The notes beneath the pieces are model-generated. The model saw only the letters and a list, made by a program, of their open reading frames with translations, ran no database searches and was not told the DNA's origin. This document shows, one piece after another, positions 395-8,379 of a stretch of DNA of 12,033 nt. The stretch's first letter is position 1, and the number at the start of each line of letters is the position of its first letter. The stretch is from a virus. The position numbers were made by a program, and so were the translations under genes. The stretch is taken from the UHGV virus genome UHGV-0311374; one strand, 5' to 3'.

Positions 395-598
395 ATGTTA
401 AATCATACCACACACCCGCAAGGGCGGGACTCGCACAACCTGAATAAATACATCTGGCGTTTTATCGCCCTGAGCACCGCACAACCGCGCGTAATTCACA
501 TCGTGGCCACCAGCGAACAGGAAGCGCGTCAGCAATCTCCTGATGGCTGCGTGATGGTATTCGCCGCCCGTATTCGTCAGGGGTCACATCATGCGTAA
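395..598 (+). CDS. Icd-like small protein (host cell division inhibitor Icd family-like), 67 aa
   Basis: ATG at 395 preceded by GAGG about 7 nt upstream; product ends ...YIWRFIALSTAQPRVIHIVATSEQEARQQSPDGCVMVFAARIRQGSHHA, which matches my recollection of Icd-like proteins of P4-like and cryptic prophage elements. The longer 29..598 ORF is rejected because its 5' part overlaps the operator/promoter region and the opposite-strand regulator. Confidence 0.5.
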   Translation: MLNHTTHPQGRDSHNLNKYIWRFIALSTAQPRVIHIVATSEQEARQQSPDGCVMVFAARIRQGSHHA

Positions 599-884
599 AA
601 ACCGCTTGCAAAAAATTATCACGGGGCTGTATGCTTCCCCCGTCGCCCACATGGCGACCGGGTTTGACAGCCTGAATACTACAGCGGACAGCCGCTTACA
701 TTCCGATATGCGGTTTTTTTGTGTCCGTAAACCTACCCATACCCGCATTATGGCGGGGCGTAACGGGGGAGCCTTTGCGCTCGCTGGTTCCTGTAGTGCC
801 AGTCTGTCAACCCTGTTACGTCTCGCCACCATGTTTGACAGCGTAGTAGCGAGACTCCTTAATTTCACTACAGGAGCCTTTCAC

Positions 885-1055
885 ATGGCTGTATTCACAC
901 GCCCTTATTTTGTCTGGCGCTTTATGCAGTGCCACCACAGCAACATCGATGTATTCACCGTTACCGCTGCCACTGAGCGCGAAGCACGTGCACAGCTGCC
1001 GCACGCACATCTTATTTTTGTCGCCCGTATTCGTCAGGGGGTGTTCCATGCCTGA
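885..1055 (+). CDS. Icd-like small protein, paralog of 395..598, 56 aa
   Basis: ATG at 885 with AGGAG 8 nt upstream; product MAVFTRPYFVWRFMQCHHSNIDVFTVTAATEREARAQLPHAHLIFVARIRQGVFHA aligns along its length with the C-terminal region of the 395..598 product (WRF...EARxQ...FxARIRQGxxHA). Confidence 0.5.
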   Translation: MAVFTRPYFVWRFMQCHHSNIDVFTVTAATEREARAQLPHAHLIFVARIRQGVFHA

Positions 1056-1374: not shown

Positions 1375-1674
1375 ATGAGAACATATTTATCTGGCTTGAC
1401 TGCCAGCGGTTATGCACACCCAAAAATTATCCCAGGCGCTATTTATCTGGATAAGAACGGTAACAGAGTAACGGTAAAAGAACTGATGTTTGACCGTGTG
1501 TATTTTATTCGTGATGGCTATTCATTTCATAGTTCGCTGAACGTGGAGATCTTTATTAGCAGATTCAGGCGGGAAATCCCGCCTTCCAGAAATAACCATG
1601 TGCCATGTATGGATGTTGATAAAAAACTACAGGAACTGAAAAACATGATTGCCGCGTGGAGAGAGCAGAAATGA
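1375..1674 (+). CDS. Hypothetical small protein, 99 aa (possibly DUF4222-like)
   Basis: ATG at 1375 with GGGGA upstream; stop overlaps the primase start (ATGA at 1671-1674); motif YLDKNGNRVTVKELMFDRVYFIRDGY resembles what I recall of small DUF4222 proteins found next to satellite primases; AT-rich. Confidence 0.5.
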   Translation: MRTYLSGLTASGYAHPKIIPGAIYLDKNGNRVTVKELMFDRVYFIRDGYSFHSSLNVEIFISRFRREIPPSRNNHVPCMDVDKKLQELKNMIAAWREQK

Positions 1675-3794
1675 AAAAAGCGCCAAATTTAAAACACCAG
1701 CCACGTGACAAAATGACGGAAGTCATCATTTTTGCGGGTAGTGATGCGTGGGCACATGCGAAGCAGTGGCAGGAACAGGACGGGCGACTGGCTGGCGATA
1801 ACGTGCCTCCTGTCTGGCTTGGAGAGCAACAACTTGCCGAACTGGATAAGCTGCAAATTGTGCCGGAAGGCCGAAAATCAGTACGCATATTCAGGGCCGG
1901 ACATCTTGAGCCAGTAATGATCAAGGCGATTGGTCAGAAGCTGGCGGCGGCAGGCGTACAGGATGCAAATTTTTACCCTGATGGAATGCACGGTCAGGAG
2001 GTGGAGAACTGGCGCGAATATCTGGCCCGTGAGCGGCAGAATCTTTCTGATGGTCTGGTTATTGAGTTTCCGGTAAAGAAAAAAGATACCGGAAGTCATA
2101 GCGATGACGAATTAAAGCCACGCGTTGAAAGTCGCGCCGATGGTGTTTTCTGGGTAACGCCCAAAGTGGATAAGCAGTCAGGCGAAATTATCCGGCCTGA
2201 GACGTGGTTATGTTCTCCGCTTGAACTACTGGGAACGGGGACGATCGGTAAAGAGCATTACCGCGTGATGCGCTGGAAAAAAACCGCAAACCATGAAGTC
2301 ATCACAATGGCGATCCCGTGTGGTGGTATCGGCGACCGTGACGGCTGGCGGTTACTTAAAGATCACGGGCTGAACGTGACAACCAACGGCAAATACAGGG
2401 CAATCCTGGCGGACTGGATGCAGTTAAGCGGAAGCCATGAGGAATGGCAGTTAAGCACAACAACGGGCTGGCATTTTGGCGCGTACATCATGCCGGACGG
2501 TTCGATCATTGGTGATTCTGAAAAACCGATCCTGTTTACCGGAAAAAGCGCCGCGATTAACGGTTATTCCGTGGCGGGTACGGCGGAGGGCTGGCGCGAG
2601 AGTGTGGCGCGGCTGGCTGGCGGTAATGCCTCAATGATGCTGGGTGTGGCAACGTCACTGGCAGCGCCTTTAATTGGCCTTGTGGGTGCTGACGGCTTCG
2701 GGGTGCATCTTTTCGAACAGTCATCGGCAGGTAAGACCACCACGCAGAACATCGCATCAAGTTTATGGGGAGAGCCGGACGCGCAGCGGCTGACCTGGTA
2801 CGGCACGGCGTTAGGTATTGCCAATGAGGCCGAGGCCCATAATGACGGGCTTTTACCACTGGATGAGATAGGCCAGGCCGGAAATGCGCGGGAAGTGTCA
2901 ACGTCTGCTTATACGCTGTTTAACGGTTCAGGGAAATTGCAGGGGGCGAAGGATGGCGGCAACAGGGAGATCAAACACTGGCGAACGGTGGCAATCAGCA
3001 CCGGAGAAATGGACGTTGAGACATTCCTCAAAAGTGAGGGGATAAAAGTTAAGGCGGGGCAGCTTGTCCGACTGCTTAACGTTCCGATGGAAAAAGCCAC
3101 GAAATTTCACGAATACAGCAACGGTAAGGAACATGCTGACGCGTTAAAGGATGCCTGGACAGCAAATCACGGGGCGGCGGGTCGTGAGTGGGTTAAATGG
3201 CTGGCAGGCCACCAGCAGGAGGCAAAGGACACGGTAAGGGAATGCCGCGAACGGTGGCGCAACCTGATACCGGAGAGTTACGGCGAGCAGGTCCACCGCG
3301 TGGGTGAACGTTTCGCCATACTGGAGGCCGCGCTTGTGCTTTCCTGTCATGTAACTGGCTGGGTCGTGCAGGAATGCCGCGACGCGATACAGTATAACTT
3401 TAATGCCTGGGTGAAGGAGTTCGGCACGGGTAACAGGGAATTTAAACAGATGGTTGAACAGGCTGAGGCGTTTTTGTCGTCGTTTGGGTTTAGCCGCTAC
3501 CTTCCGTACCCCAATACAGATGAGCGTGATTTACCGATTAAAGAGCTTGCCGGATACAGAAAAGGGAGCATTCGCAACGAAGATGACGAGATGCGCTATT
3601 ACACGTTCCCGCACGTGTTTGAGAGTGAGATAGCGAAGGGATTTAATCCGGCGCATTTTGCGCGTGCCCTGGATGCTGCCGGAATGCTGGAGAAGGGAAG
3701 CGATCGCCGATACAAAAAAAAGGCGCTGGGCAAGATTGGGGGTAAGCAGCATGTTTTTTACGTGCTGATGTTCCAGCCTGATGATGAAGATTAA
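1671..3794 (+). CDS. Replication initiation protein, primase/helicase-like (P4 alpha / PICI Pri-Rep type), 707 aa
   Basis: Long ORF; ATG at 1671 preceded by GGAGAG (the track's 1656 start is an upstream GTG); Walker A-like motif SSAGKTT in FEQSSAGKTTTQNIASSLWG; sits immediately upstream of an iteron array, as expected for a satellite or plasmid-type initiator. Confidence 0.8.
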   Translation: MKKAPNLKHQPRDKMTEVIIFAGSDAWAHAKQWQEQDGRLAGDNVPPVWLGEQQLAELDKLQIVPEGRKSVRIFRAGHLEPVMIKAIGQKLAAAGVQDANFYPDGMHGQEVENWREYLARERQNLSDGLVIEFPVKKKDTGSHSDDELKPRVESRADGVFWVTPKVDKQSGEIIRPETWLCSPLELLGTGTIGKEHYRVMRWKKTANHEVITMAIPCGGIGDRDGWRLLKDHGLNVTTNGKYRAILADWMQLSGSHEEWQLSTTTGWHFGAYIMPDGSIIGDSEKPILFTGKSAAINGYSVAGTAEGWRESVARLAGGNASMMLGVATSLAAPLIGLVGADGFGVHLFEQSSAGKTTTQNIASSLWGEPDAQRLTWYGTALGIANEAEAHNDGLLPLDEIGQAGNAREVSTSAYTLFNGSGKLQGAKDGGNREIKHWRTVAISTGEMDVETFLKSEGIKVKAGQLVRLLNVPMEKATKFHEYSNGKEHADALKDAWTANHGAAGREWVKWLAGHQQEAKDTVRECRERWRNLIPESYGEQVHRVGERFAILEAALVLSCHVTGWVVQECRDAIQYNFNAWVKEFGTGNREFKQMVEQAEAFLSSFGFSRYLPYPNTDERDLPIKELAGYRKGSIRNEDDEMRYYTFPHVFESEIAKGFNPAHFARALDAAGMLEKGSDRRYKKKALGKIGGKQHVFYVLMFQPDDED

Positions 3795-7167: not shown

Positions 7168-8379
7168 ATGTGGCCTTTCAGAAGAAAAAAAGAGCAGCGC
7201 AGCATGACGCTTGATGAGTTTATGGCGCTGGCTGGCACATCGAACACGGGGGCGGGTGAGTACGTATCATCGGGGACAGCGGAATCACTGCCCGCCGTCA
7301 TGAACGCCGTCACGGTCATCTCTGAGGCGGTGGCTACCATGCCGTGTTACCTGTACCTGGTACGCAATGAGAAGGGGAAGGAGGCCCGAGAGTGGCTTGA
7401 TTCTCATCCGGTCGATCACATCCTCAACGAGCGCCCGAACTCGTGGCAGACTCCCTACCAGTTTAAGCGAATGATGATCCGCCACTGCCTGTTAAACGGT
7501 AATGCTTATGCGGTGATTCAGTGGGGGCGTGATGGTTTTCCGGTCGCTTTGCATCCTTACCCGCCGCAGTCGGTGAACGTTGAGCAGACAGGTGAGCATA
7601 ACTGGCGCTACTGCATCACTGACGCCTACACCGGAAACACCCGCAACTATTTACCGTGGGAGGTTCTCCACCTTCGTTACTCCACGGATGACGGTTTTAT
7701 GGGGCGCTCACCTGTAACCATCTGCCGCGAATCGCTGGGGCTTGGGCTGGCCCAACAACGCCACGGCGCGAGCGTGATGCGTGATGGCATGATGGCGGCA
7801 GGGGTTATCACGTCAGGCGAATGGCTGGACGGCGTGAAGGGCAAACAGGCATTAGCCGCGCTGGAACGCTACAAAGGGGCCAGAAACGCCGGAAAAACGC
7901 CCATCCTTGAAGGGGGTATGAGCTATCAGCAGCTGGGCATGAGTAATCAGGATGCTGAATGGCTGGCCTCCCGTCGCTTCACCATTGAAGACATCGCCCG
8001 AATGTTCAACGTCTCGCCGATTTTTTTGCAGGAATACAGCAACAGCACCTACAGCAATTTCAGCGAGGCAAGCCGCGCATTTCTCACCATGACGATGCGC
8101 CCGTGGCTGGCGAACTTTGAGCAGCAGATAAAAAACGCCCTGCTGGTGGCCTCGCCTGTACCTGGTATCCGGTATCAGGTTGAGTTTGACAGCGCGGACC
8201 TGTTACGGGCCACACCTGGCGAACGCTTTGCCACCTATGAACGCGGCATCAAATCCGGCGTTATGTGCCCGAACGAAGCCCGCGAACGTGAAGGGCTGTC
8301 CCCGCGTGATGGTGGTGATGAGTTCAGCCAGGCATGGAAACAGGAAGTAAAAATCAGCGAGGGAGAAAAACAGGAATGA
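7168..8379 (+). CDS. Portal protein, HK97 family, 403 aa
   Basis: About 400-aa ORF immediately downstream of the protease, with one nucleotide between stop and start; size, position and sequence character fit HK97-family portals. Confidence 0.8.
   Translation: MWPFRRKKEQRSMTLDEFMALAGTSNTGAGEYVSSGTAESLPAVMNAVTVISEAVATMPCYLYLVRNEKGKEAREWLDSHPVDHILNERPNSWQTPYQFKRMMIRHCLLNGNAYAVIQWGRDGFPVALHPYPPQSVNVEQTGEHNWRYCITDAYTGNTRNYLPWEVLHLRYSTDDGFMGRSPVTICRESLGLGLAQQRHGASVMRDGMMAAGVITSGEWLDGVKGKQALAALERYKGARNAGKTPILEGGMSYQQLGMSNQDAEWLASRRFTIEDIARMFNVSPIFLQEYSNSTYSNFSEASRAFLTMTMRPWLANFEQQIKNALLVASPVPGIRYQVEFDSADLLRATPGERFATYERGIKSGVMCPNEAREREGLSPRDGGDEFSQAWKQEVKISEGEKQE

Follow-up and report, generated by a model that had tools for sequence, protein, structure and literature searches.

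The C4 RNA of phages P1 and P7 and the CI RNA of satellite P4 belong to one Rfam family of antisense RNAs (C4, RF01695; gathering threshold 45 bits). Full repression of ant in P1 requires C4 (PMC8198154), and both C4 and CI are processed by RNase P (PMC5499578). P4 termination proceeds through pairing of CI with seqA and seqC (PMC4825925), and the logic of CI, seqA, eta and kil is laid out in PMC10111431. The mechanism of IsrK, together with a stated homology to P4 SeqA, has also been described (PMC4825925). C4 and isrK matches have been reported in Gram-negative and helper-embedded PICIs, between the integration and replication genes, where they were read as an immunity RNA inside an eta-like gene (PMC10111431, 2023). 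The RNA family, the P1 and P4 mechanisms and the presence in Gram-negative PICIs are all published, and the locus presented here leaves current understanding unchanged.

The window is the whole stretch of DNA that was analysed, 12,033 nt of UHGV virus genome UHGV-0311374. Its positions 591-1055 are very probably an antisense-RNA immunity cassette of the P1 C4 / P4 CI family that stands first in the early (replication) operon of an E. coli satellite island with capsid genes. The C4/CI-type locus is real, probably functional, and of an already described type (P1 C4, P4 CI). Its features are collected in Table 1.

Table 1. Features of the cassette and its flanks, in window coordinates
Feature	Position	Strand	Remarks
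icd-like gene 1 (67 aa), upstream	395..598	+	41% identity to icd-like gene 2; aligns with P1 Icd
Long open frame, 154 codons	591..1055	+	Crosses leader and C4 RNA gene, ends as icd-like gene 2
Putative promoter of leader/C4 transcript	606..635	+	TTGCAA, 18-nt spacer, TATGCT
Leader hairpin 1 (GTCGCC/GGCGAC)	642..658	+	First hairpin of c4-a1b1 / isrK motif
Leader hairpin 2	659..674	+	Shows a1 in its loop
a1 target TTGACAG	664..670	+	Loop of leader hairpin 2; within first GTTTGACAGC copy
b1 target ACTACAG	678..684	+	Complementary to b' loop of RNA
Weak terminator-like hairpin and U7	690..720	+	Stem 690-695 with 710-715, T7 714-720; 3' hairpin of isrK model; counterpart in P1
C4/CI-family antisense RNA gene	746..833	+	Rfam RF01695, fold, P1 c4 identity, stem pairing in homologues
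Predicted mature RNA, 77 nt	752..828	+	Ends ...GCCA; homology with annotated 77-nt P1 C4
b' recognition loop	789..798	+	Core CTGTAGT 791-797; second internal hairpin of RNA
a' recognition element CTGTCAA	804..810	+	Single-stranded linker of RNA
a2 target TTGACAG	835..841	+	7 nt past predicted RNA 3' end; within second GTTTGACAGC copy
b2 target CACTACAGGA	866..875	+	ACTACAG 867-873; 10 contiguous pairs with 789-798
icd-like gene 2 (56 aa)	885..1055	+	First translated gene past RNA; 50% identity to P1 Icd
GCCCGTATTCGTCAGGGG, second copy	1021..1038	+	3' end of icd; first copy 562-579

The RNA gene is matched by the Rfam C4 model at 746-833 (+) over model positions 1-87 of 87, with 72.3 bits and an E value of 7.3e-13. 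With the P4 CI RNA this model gives 74.9 bits, and so the resemblance to P4 immunity is one of homology, not analogy. An earlier, sequence-only reading of the stretch had proposed a P4-like control at the RNA level; these two scores, together with the common layout and the nested ORF, support it. Upstream, the Rfam c4-a1b1 motif (RF03163) matches 629-678 with 46.8 bits (E = 2e-9), barely over its threshold of 46.7, and the match is backed by compensatory changes at 4 of the 6 pairs of leader hairpin 1, which is paired in 100% of cells among 14 distinct sequences. The 190 nt at 654-843 are 80-82% identical in DNA to the c4 loci of P1 and D6, which have been defined by experiment, and the order in the GenBank P1 record (a1, b1, C4, a2, b2, icd) is the order here, the two aligning column for column. 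Judged by sequence, the closest relative is the C4 of phage P1 (80% identity), not P4. The Rfam E values and the fold z-score place the locus far beyond chance expectation.

The 88-nt RNA folds with -46 kcal/mol (z = -5.65). Its minimum-energy fold is a long closing stem around two hairpins and a single-stranded linker, as the C4 family requires. Among 14 distinct homologues the stems are 90-100% paired, and both the closing stem and hairpin 1 contain compensatory pairs. The RNA is tRNA-like, with two exposed recognition elements, b' and a', and with ACCA at 828-831 after its acceptor-like stem. The predicted ends were placed via alignment to the annotated P1 C4; by analogy with C4 and CI, a stable RNA of about 77 nt is predicted to arise when RNase P processes a longer transcript.

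Both recognition elements have targets upstream and downstream of the RNA, and all six a and b sites are exact 7-nt matches. Site b2 overlaps the Shine-Dalgarno sequence of icd-like gene 2 (GGAG, 873-876; start at 885). The a set had already been noticed correctly from the letters alone: the direct repeat GTTTGACAGC is exact in both copies (662-671 and 833-842), and CTGTCAA at 804-810 is the exact complement of TTGACAG in either one. The b set (ACTACAG at 678-684 and 867-873, CTGTAGT at 791-797) and the RNA gene itself had been missed. Nor is the complementary element a free strand that chooses between hairpins, as had been supposed; its place is the single-stranded linker of an RNA that is tRNA-like, stable and predicted to be processed. 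Words within one mismatch of GTTTGACAGC are expected 0.68 times over the whole window.

In 15 of 15 related loci the a copies are mutually exact and the b copies likewise, with 2 a alleles and 9 b alleles. The three copies of each set co-vary across these loci, and complementarity is broken in none. The b':b2 duplex shows compensatory change at 7 of its 10 pairs; as many as 4 pair types occur at one position, and 97% of cells are paired. For b1:b' the figures are 6 of 7 pairs and 100% of cells; the pairings a1:a' and a':a2 are each kept in 100% with compensatory change at 2 of 7. Overall 97.7-98.1% of cells are paired, versus 34-47% when the partner column is slid, and the observed covariation score was matched by 0 of 500 shuffles. 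In an 11-locus cross matrix the cognate duplexes (-19.5 to -24.8 kcal/mol) were always best. The a and b pairings are maintained through compensatory change in every homologue examined, and the allele table (9 b, 2 a, always matched) is a clear natural case of three-site co-evolution that would set immunity specificity. The a site is common to the island, P1 and D6, and the b site is private to the island. Since the b allele is ACTACAG here versus GTTAGTG in P1 and GATTGTG in P7, a different immunity specificity is predicted.

The leader in front of the RNA gene has a putative promoter whose -10 is column-aligned with the annotated -10 (TATAGT) of P1 promoter P1c4/P51b. With 8 of 12 consensus matches it falls under the threshold of the promoter scan. 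The scan for promoters and terminators found neither it nor the leader terminator, whose loop is longer than the 8 nt that the scan allows. A weak hairpin with a T run had been proposed near 690-719, and it is there: stem and loop at 690-715 (6 pairs, 14-nt loop, -7.5 kcal/mol), T7 at 714-720, the whole kept in 15 of 15 aligned homologues with stem core and T run invariant. This element shows no covariation and is therefore conserved, not proven.

A different role for the leader is suggested by the isrK model (RF01394), which aligns across 642-720, terminator included. The locus could be an activating switch of the IsrK type, in which the full-length transcript is inactive through pairing of a1/b1 with a'/b' in cis, and the short leader RNA 642-720, which would end at the hairpin and U-run, accumulate and carry a1/b1, competes for this pairing in trans and activates downstream translation, for a net positive effect as with Gifsy-1 IsrK. 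The repeats would then serve mutually exclusive structures in cis, close to the picture given by the sequence-only reading. In the minimum-energy fold of 640-900 the a1:a' and b1:b' pairings do form in cis; among related satellites some loci exceed the isrK gathering threshold of 50 bits, as does the leader of P4 (52-62 bits; 60.8 for P4), and the mechanism and its SeqA homology are published (PMC4825925). The window itself scores only 35 bits, however, and its 80% identity is to P1, whose C4 represses. Moreover, b2, lying on the ribosome-binding site, covaries as strongly as b1, which fits a repressing antisense RNA and is needless for a pure cis switch. We consider such a switch unlikely as the account of the locus; activation of the IsrK kind and repression by C4 are not mutually exclusive.

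A further reading looks beyond the single island. The alleles, two for a and at least nine for b, occur in mixed combinations, and C4-icd cassettes might form one exchangeable, combinatorial system of immunity specificity shared by P1-type phage-plasmids and satellite islands, with cross-talk between a satellite RNA and a co-resident phage. We hold this to be decidedly improbable. If it were true, half-site pairing could let a satellite dampen icd-ant expression of a P1-like phage, and the phage leader RNA could titrate the satellite repressor and so induce the satellite. A search for a phage with the a and b specificity of the window found none, the best phage match to 783-876 being D6 (87%) with another b allele. 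One 32-kb E. coli plasmid record turned up in this search with an exact match of 64 nt.

Further candidate parts within the window were considered. ACTACAGGAA at 1626-1635, in the DUF4222 gene and 36 nt before the primase start, is a perfect 10-nt complement of the b' loop and could be a second direct target in the replication operon; a third exact copy of GTTTGACAGC lies at 8184-8193 in the portal gene. Both words are also present in islands without a C4 cassette; they therefore show no co-evolution with the RNA and are probably due to chance. A conserved hairpin at 330-354, in the 5' UTR of icd-like gene 1, contains CTGTAG, which resembles b'. It was rejected as a part of the system: it is unchanged in FWSEC7 despite a different b allele there, nearly the same (CTGTTG) in the C4-less O157 island, and different in ZH063, an E. 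coli strain that has the b allele of the window and matches it with 99.7% identity over 590-900.

On the 3' side of the cassette come a 106-aa ORF that Pfam does not match, DUF4222 and a DUF927 primase-helicase. SSB, PerC and a complete set of head and packaging genes come next, and each head and packaging gene has a Pfam match (capsid, protease, portal, head-tail connector, HNH, TerS, TerL). Homologous islands have an integrase at one edge, host genes at the other and no tail genes. This gene content fits a capsid-forming PICI, that is, an integrase-bearing, tail-less island of about 15 kb with its own head and packaging genes. No Ant/KilA/Bro domain was found in the genes after icd-like gene 2, and a search of the whole window for the C1 operator ATTGCTCTAATAAATTT, allowing up to 3 mismatches, gave no match; with both the ant gene and the C1 operator missing, the P1 circuit does not transfer whole.

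Within the island family the cassette is variable in its presence. The two copies of the 18-bp repeat GCCCGTATTCGTCAGGGG flank the C4-icd cassette of about 440 bp, and the nearest islands (E110019, O157:H7), 96-97% identical elsewhere, are entirely without it: there, window position 583 is joined straight to about 1022 and no C4 match is found. Because it is missing from the closest relatives, the cassette is dispensable for the life cycle of the island and may do no more than modulate it. At 95% identity or more it occurs in only about 16 complete E. coli genomes. Nor is the RNA an obligate partner of icd-like genes, since 10 other icd-like loci of Enterobacterales have no C4 match at the gathering threshold. 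This patchy distribution and the repeat at the bounds would also suit an inactive remnant, recombined in from a P1-like element or another satellite, that regulates nothing and owes its complementarity to recent insertion. We judge that very improbable in view of six perfect recognition sites, an intact RNA fold and an open long frame. The b allele of the window, moreover, was found in no phage record and yet has changed consistently at three separate sites; since it differs from all others at all three, selection on pairing within satellite lineages is required.

The stretch between the two Icd-like genes had been taken for a spacer, and it is not one: the open frame 591-1055 crosses it in phase with icd-like gene 2. 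The stop codon of icd-like gene 1 (596-598) overlaps the ATG of this frame (591) within ATGCGTAA, which suggests translational coupling from icd-like gene 1 to the long frame. The frame has 0 stops, versus 3 and 7 in the other two frames, and is open in 11 of 11 satellite loci (P4 included) and closed in 7 of 7 phage-type loci; in P1, P7 and D6 the closure lies 33-42 nt upstream of icd. In FWSEC7 and 07_3636 it survives compensating -1/+1 indels that rewrite about 30 aa. Only 1.9% of dinucleotide shuffles are stop-free in the long frame; since some are, its openness could come partly from descent instead of selection. The P4 counterpart is open for 456 nt upstream of the 65-aa kil. In our view 591-1055 corresponds to P4 eta, at whose end kil is nested, and icd-like gene 2 corresponds to P1 icd and P4 kil. 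BLASTP gave no alignment between icd-like protein 2 and P4 Kil; in a multiple alignment the conserved motifs of the former line up with Kil at 25% identity. This protein homology being weak, the P4 case rests on the RNA and the architecture.

RefSeq names the homologues 'host cell division inhibitor Icd-like protein', and Pfam has no match in the icd-like proteins, the 98-aa N-terminal extension, ORF 16-204 or ORF 1048-1368. That 591-1055 simply encodes a 154-aa Icd-like protein with incidental repeats, as its open frame and the PGAP annotation of the homologous frame ('Icd-like protein' or a pseudogene of one) might propose, is scarcely credible, given N-terminal 98 aa that have no Pfam domain, about 30 codons read in another frame in the two strains with indels while the frame stays open, the same nucleotides being non-coding in P1, P7 and D6, the strong covariance-model matches with RNA-RNA covariation, and a pattern opposite to the expected one of amino-acid purifying selection (residues 1-98) with silent variation breaking RNA pairs.

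For the C4/CI-type cassette we propose a mechanism whose dynamic steps are all carried over by homology from P1 and P4. A weak constitutive promoter at about 606-635 would produce the leader transcript, and part of these transcripts would end at the hairpin and U-run at 690-720. Transcripts that read through would be cut by RNase P and trimmed to the stable RNA of about 77 nt (752-828). This RNA would pair with a2/b2 and a1/b1, on the same or on a newly arriving copy of the element, and pairing would block translation of icd-like gene 2. Rho would then prematurely terminate the untranslated message, so that orf106, DUF4222 and the DUF927 primase-helicase stay off. By analogy with P4, termination by blocked translation upstream of the replication genes is likely, and the gene order, with DUF4222 and the DUF927 primase downstream, is consistent with it. 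The specificity of immunity would be fixed by the combination of a and b sequences. When transcription comes from an upstream promoter at about 257-285, ribosomes leaving icd-like gene 1 may re-initiate at the ATG at 591 and, using the long frame, read on through the leader and the RNA gene, as in P4 eta; the translated transcript would override RNA-dependent termination and turn the operon on.

In comparison with the immI region of P1 and P7, the order a1, b1, terminator-like hairpin, RNA (b', a'), a2, b2 with the Shine-Dalgarno sequence, and icd is common to both, and P1 and the island have the same TTGACAG a allele and the same mature RNA length of 77 nt (predicted here). The phage region has the antirepressor gene ant after icd, to which it is translationally coupled, and a C1 operator that overlaps the upstream promoter, whereas the island has replication genes in that place and is without such an operator. 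The RNA gene of P1, P7 and D6 is not crossed by a long frame, and that of the island is; P1 is a phage-plasmid, the island chromosomal and integrative.

P4 shares with the island the two-by-two layout of targets around the RNA, in which the distal target of P4 covers the ribosome-binding site of kil, and a long frame whose start lies 5' of the internal promoter, overlapping the stop codon of the gene before. Its RNA locus likewise heads a primase-encoding operon; the primase of the island is of the DUF927 type, a difference from P4. In primary sequence P4 is far from the island and alignable only via the covariance model. The spacing from leader to RNA is 25 nt in the island and about 107 nt in P4, the coupled upstream gene is icd-like in the island and an alpA/vis homologue in P4, and the island encodes capsid, portal and terminase, which P4 does not.

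The IsrK/STnc1160 locus of Gifsy-1 in Salmonella resembles the island: its leader has two hairpins plus a terminator, and the C4-like region behind it is part of a translated frame that is coupled to the next gene. The short leader RNA of Gifsy-1 activates an antirepressor, whereas the anatomy of the island, with b2 on the Shine-Dalgarno sequence and near-identity to P1, points to repression of the icd-like and replication genes.

The 2023 account of PICIs (PMC10111431) treats the C4 and isrK matches in one sentence, without analysis of targets, covariation, alleles or frame, and the present island was analysed for all four. Set beside these systems, a stretch that carries the label "Icd-like protein" or pseudogene in RefSeq consists mainly of an RNA gene and its target sites, and a capsid-forming island family gains a candidate switch for its replication operon. 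The contrast between a frame that is open in satellites and closed in phages widens the "translate through to override" logic of P4 eta to more satellites.

The stretch between the two Icd-like genes encodes an RNA of the C4 antisense family, with the family fold. An Rfam scan of the whole window gave three matches, all inside the region singled out by the sequence-only reading: C4 antisense RNA (RF01695; 746-833, + strand, 72.3 bits against a gathering threshold of 45, E 7e-13, full model length), the a1/b1 target motif of C4 (RF03163; 629-678, 46.8 bits against a threshold of 46.7) and, sub-threshold, isrK (RF01394; 642-720, 35 bits against 50), the last taking in a hairpin and T run. RNA folding, proposed earlier as a check, recovered the C4-family shape for the 88-nt stretch, a long closing stem around two hairpins and a single-stranded linker, at -46 kcal/mol (z = -5.65; 0 of 200 shuffles as good). 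DNA identity of 654-843 is 80% to the phage P1 c4 region and 82% to phage D6. The window aligns column for column with the annotated c4 elements of P1, whose GenBank order is promoters P2c4/P1c4, a1, b1, the 77-nt C4 RNA, a2, b2, icd and ant. In the P1 nomenclature used below, a1 and b1 are leader targets, a' and b' lie in the RNA and a2 and b2 are downstream targets.

Anatomy of the C4 locus in the window, in P1 nomenclature
Feature	Coordinates	Description
Leader hairpin 1	642-658	GTCGCC/GGCGAC
Leader hairpin 2	659-674	a1 displayed in loop
a1	664-670	TTGACAG
b1	678-684	ACTACAG
Terminator-like hairpin and U7	690-720	weak
RNA gene	746-833	Rfam match
Predicted mature RNA	752-828	77 nt, 3' end ...GCCA; placed from the annotated ends of P1 C4
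b'	791-797, extendable to 789-798	CTGTAGT, in the second hairpin's loop
a'	804-810	CTGTCAA, in the linker
a2	835-841	TTGACAG
b2	866-875	CACTACAGGA; contiguous 10-pair helix with 789-798; overlap with GGAG 873-876
icd-like gene 2	ATG 885	Shine-Dalgarno overlapped by b2

The observation that led here is confirmed. Copies of GTTTGACAGC do occur at 662-671 and 833-842 (chance expectation, allowing at most one mismatch, 0.68 matches in the whole window), CTGTCAA is exactly complementary to the TTGACAG core in both, and the weak hairpin pairs 690-695 with 710-715 (6 pairs, 14-nt loop, -7.5 kcal/mol), with seven T at 714-720. This description caught the a trio of the RNA-level elements and overlooked the b trio entirely, along with the RNA gene. 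Its interpretation as P4-style RNA control is supported and was understated: the P4 CI RNA matches the same C4 model (74.9 bits, with 60.8 bits for the P4 leader on isrK), so the resemblance is homology rather than mere analogy. A third exact copy of GTTTGACAGC, at 8184-8193 within the portal gene, is kept whether or not an island has the C4 cassette (ZH063, E110019, O157:H7) and so does not co-evolve with the RNA.

Comparison covered 18 loci, seven of phage type (P1, P7, D6 and four related contigs) and 11 of satellite type (P4 plus ten satellite loci in the chromosomes of E. coli and Escherichia sp.). All six recognition sites are present and covary. In all 15 loci alignable with P1 the three a copies are identical within the locus, as are the three b copies; across these loci a takes two forms (TTGACAG, TTAGCAG) and b nine (ACTACAG, GTTAGTG, GATTGTG, ACTTACG, GACAAAG, ACTTTGG, AAATTGG, GTTAGAG, AATCAAG). 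Counted in alignment A3, which holds 14 distinct sequences, both sides had changed in 7 of 10 b':b2 pairs (at most four pair types per position, 97% of cells paired), in 6 of 7 b1:b' pairs, and in 2 of 7 pairs for each of a':a2 and a1:a', with 100% of cells paired in these last three helices. Overall, 97.7-98.1% of the structure is paired; sliding the partners by 1-3 columns lowers this to 34-47%, and the covariation score was reached by 0 of 500 shuffles.

A duplex-energy cross matrix of 11 loci placed the cognate pair best in every row (-19.5 to -24.8 kcal/mol, against -4 to -18 for non-cognate pairs); the RNA of the window gives -24.8 kcal/mol on its own targets and -10.9 on those of P1. 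The island has its a site in common with P1; its own b site, together with the cognate-first energies, predicts a separate immunity specificity. Its b allele (ACTACAG) was found in no phage record searched.

Two further b'-related sequences were noted. Within the DUF4222 gene, ACTACAGGAA at 1626-1635 is perfectly complementary, over 10 nt, to the C4 b' loop (788-797); the primase ATG at 1671 follows 36 nt later. The E110019 island has this sequence too but no C4 cassette, so the match is probably coincidence; a second RNA target in the replication operon is conceivable. A conserved hairpin, CCCCG...CGGGG, at 327-357 in the icd-like 1 5' UTR displays a b'-like CTGTAG in its loop; it was rejected as part of the C4 system, since in related islands it does not vary along with the b allele.

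The supposed spacer between the Icd-like genes is crossed by an open reading frame, 591-1055 (154 codons), in phase with icd-like 2 (885-1055), its ATG overlapping the icd-like 1 stop in ATGCGTAA. Over 591-884 this frame is free of stops, where the other two have 3 and 7; a stop-free frame arose in 1.9% of dinucleotide shuffles. Every one of the 11 satellite-type loci (P4 among them) keeps the icd/kil frame open across RNA gene and leader, for 330-1488 nt upstream, and the other frames close within 12-174 nt. All seven phage-type loci have 2-6 stops in the leader/RNA region, the frame closing 18-42 nt upstream of icd. In FWSEC7 and 07_3636 (L021 2502-2966 and L022 2468-2932), indels of -1 (terminator loop) and +1 (b' loop) put about 30 codons in a different frame, still open; RefSeq labels both loci 'frameshifted' pseudogenes. 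The conserved property of the long frame is translatability, not peptide. P4 has the same arrangement, kil (65 aa, reproduced here) being the end of eta. As summarized where PMC10111431 cites Forti et al. 1999, eta has its start upstream of the constitutive internal promoter and is coupled in translation to the gene before it; translation of eta prevents immunity-dependent termination.

In ZH063 (L002 13212-13661) and other RefSeq homologues, PGAP annotates the RNA-crossing frame as 'Icd-like protein' or pseudogene, with no ncRNA at these loci, so the C4 RNA is hidden under protein annotation in RefSeq. The 07_3636 locus carries two complete leader and C4 modules in tandem, the first (1950-2229) of P4 sequence type and the second (2506-2710) of P1 type; the P4-type module is contained in a 550-aa 'Icd-like protein' frame open 1488 nt upstream of the icd-like end.

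b2 overlaps the ribosome-binding site of icd-like 2, which is nested in the open frame. From what is known of P1 and P4, we propose that transcription would begin at a weak putative promoter, 606-635, which has 8 of 12 consensus matches, was not called by the promoter scan, and has a -10 hexamer, TATGCT, aligned with the annotated -10 TATAGT of P1 P51b. A fraction of transcripts would end at 720, and the mature RNA would be released by RNase P processing, as described for C4/CI-type RNA (PMC5499578). Pairing with a2/b2 would block icd-like translation, leading to Rho-dependent termination and silent replication genes, with the a/b combination as specificity determinant. Where transcripts begin at an upstream promoter, translation through the long frame would override this block. 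The candidate counterpart of the upstream PLL promoter of P4 is a sigma-70-type promoter-like site, TTGACG-17-TAAATT, at 257-285, between icd-like 1 and a divergent YlcI/YnfO-like gene (minus strand, 16-204); in four related islands the -35 region of this site is conserved, with TTGA invariant.

An IsrK-type positive switch, in which a short leader RNA relieves inhibitory cis pairing (PMC4825925), may coexist with repression. In the minimum-energy fold of 640-900, a1:a' and b1:b' are paired in cis. The covarying b2 on the Shine-Dalgarno and the near-identity to P1, however, make repression the likelier main mode. An inactive remnant is unlikely, the sites being perfect and the fold intact, and a purely coding role is excluded as sole explanation.

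The window is a capsid-forming PICI-like island. Downstream of the cassette come a 106-aa ORF, DUF4222, DUF927 primase-helicase, SSB and PerC, then capsid, prohead protease, portal, head completion, connector, HNH, TerS and TerL genes. In ZH063 the homologous island is flanked by uvrB and bioD; it begins on the left with an integrase and has no tail genes. The closest islands overall, E110019 and O157:H7 (96-97% identity), have no C4 match and lack the cassette; E110019 and O157:H7 (MB41-1) join window 583 straight to ~1022. This junction is marked by an 18-bp direct repeat, GCCCGTATTCGTCAGGGG, which bounds the C4-icd cassette (562-579 and 1021-1038) and is the conserved 3' end of icd-like genes, both of those here included. 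Since cassette-less islands are joined at this repeat, the C4-icd unit appears to be an accessory, mobile cassette that islands gain or lose when icd 3' ends recombine.

The island is mosaic: the window encodes a DUF927-type primase-helicase of ~710 aa (1656-3794) and ZH063 a different 582-aa 'DNA primase family protein' (L002 14197-15945), although their C4 cassettes are 99.7% identical. The cassette or part of it is also on a record deposited as a plasmid, CP088587.1 (H113, E. coli, 32.6 kb), where 64 nt at 21279-21342, annotated under an Icd-like protein, are 100% identical to window 799-862 (3' half of C4, a2 and spacer). Two short contigs of a MAG, 'Bacillota bacterium' OH_SBlB_19 (L011 and L014), bear enterobacterial P1-like and P4-like c4-icd modules and are probably mis-binned or contaminant sequence.

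The locus is P1-like in sequence and P4-like in architecture and downstream cargo. Of the features that define the C4 RNA family and P4-type nested-gene architecture, it shows those we tested; it falls short of the isrK score threshold. It differs from P1 immI, whose ant gene and C1 operator were not found in the window. The layout of P4 in its own sequence is alike (GTGAGAA twice, TCACAGG twice, both complements within CI), with the distal b site just upstream of the kil start. Rfam C4 and isrK profiles match several Gram-negative PICIs and helper-embedded PICIs, read as P4-like immunity RNAs inside eta-like genes (2023, PMC10111431). With these essentials already described, our locus adds a member to a known kind of system; what is added here is a catalogue of alleles, the division of satellite from phage loci by frame openness, the indels that restore the frame, and the limits of the cassette.
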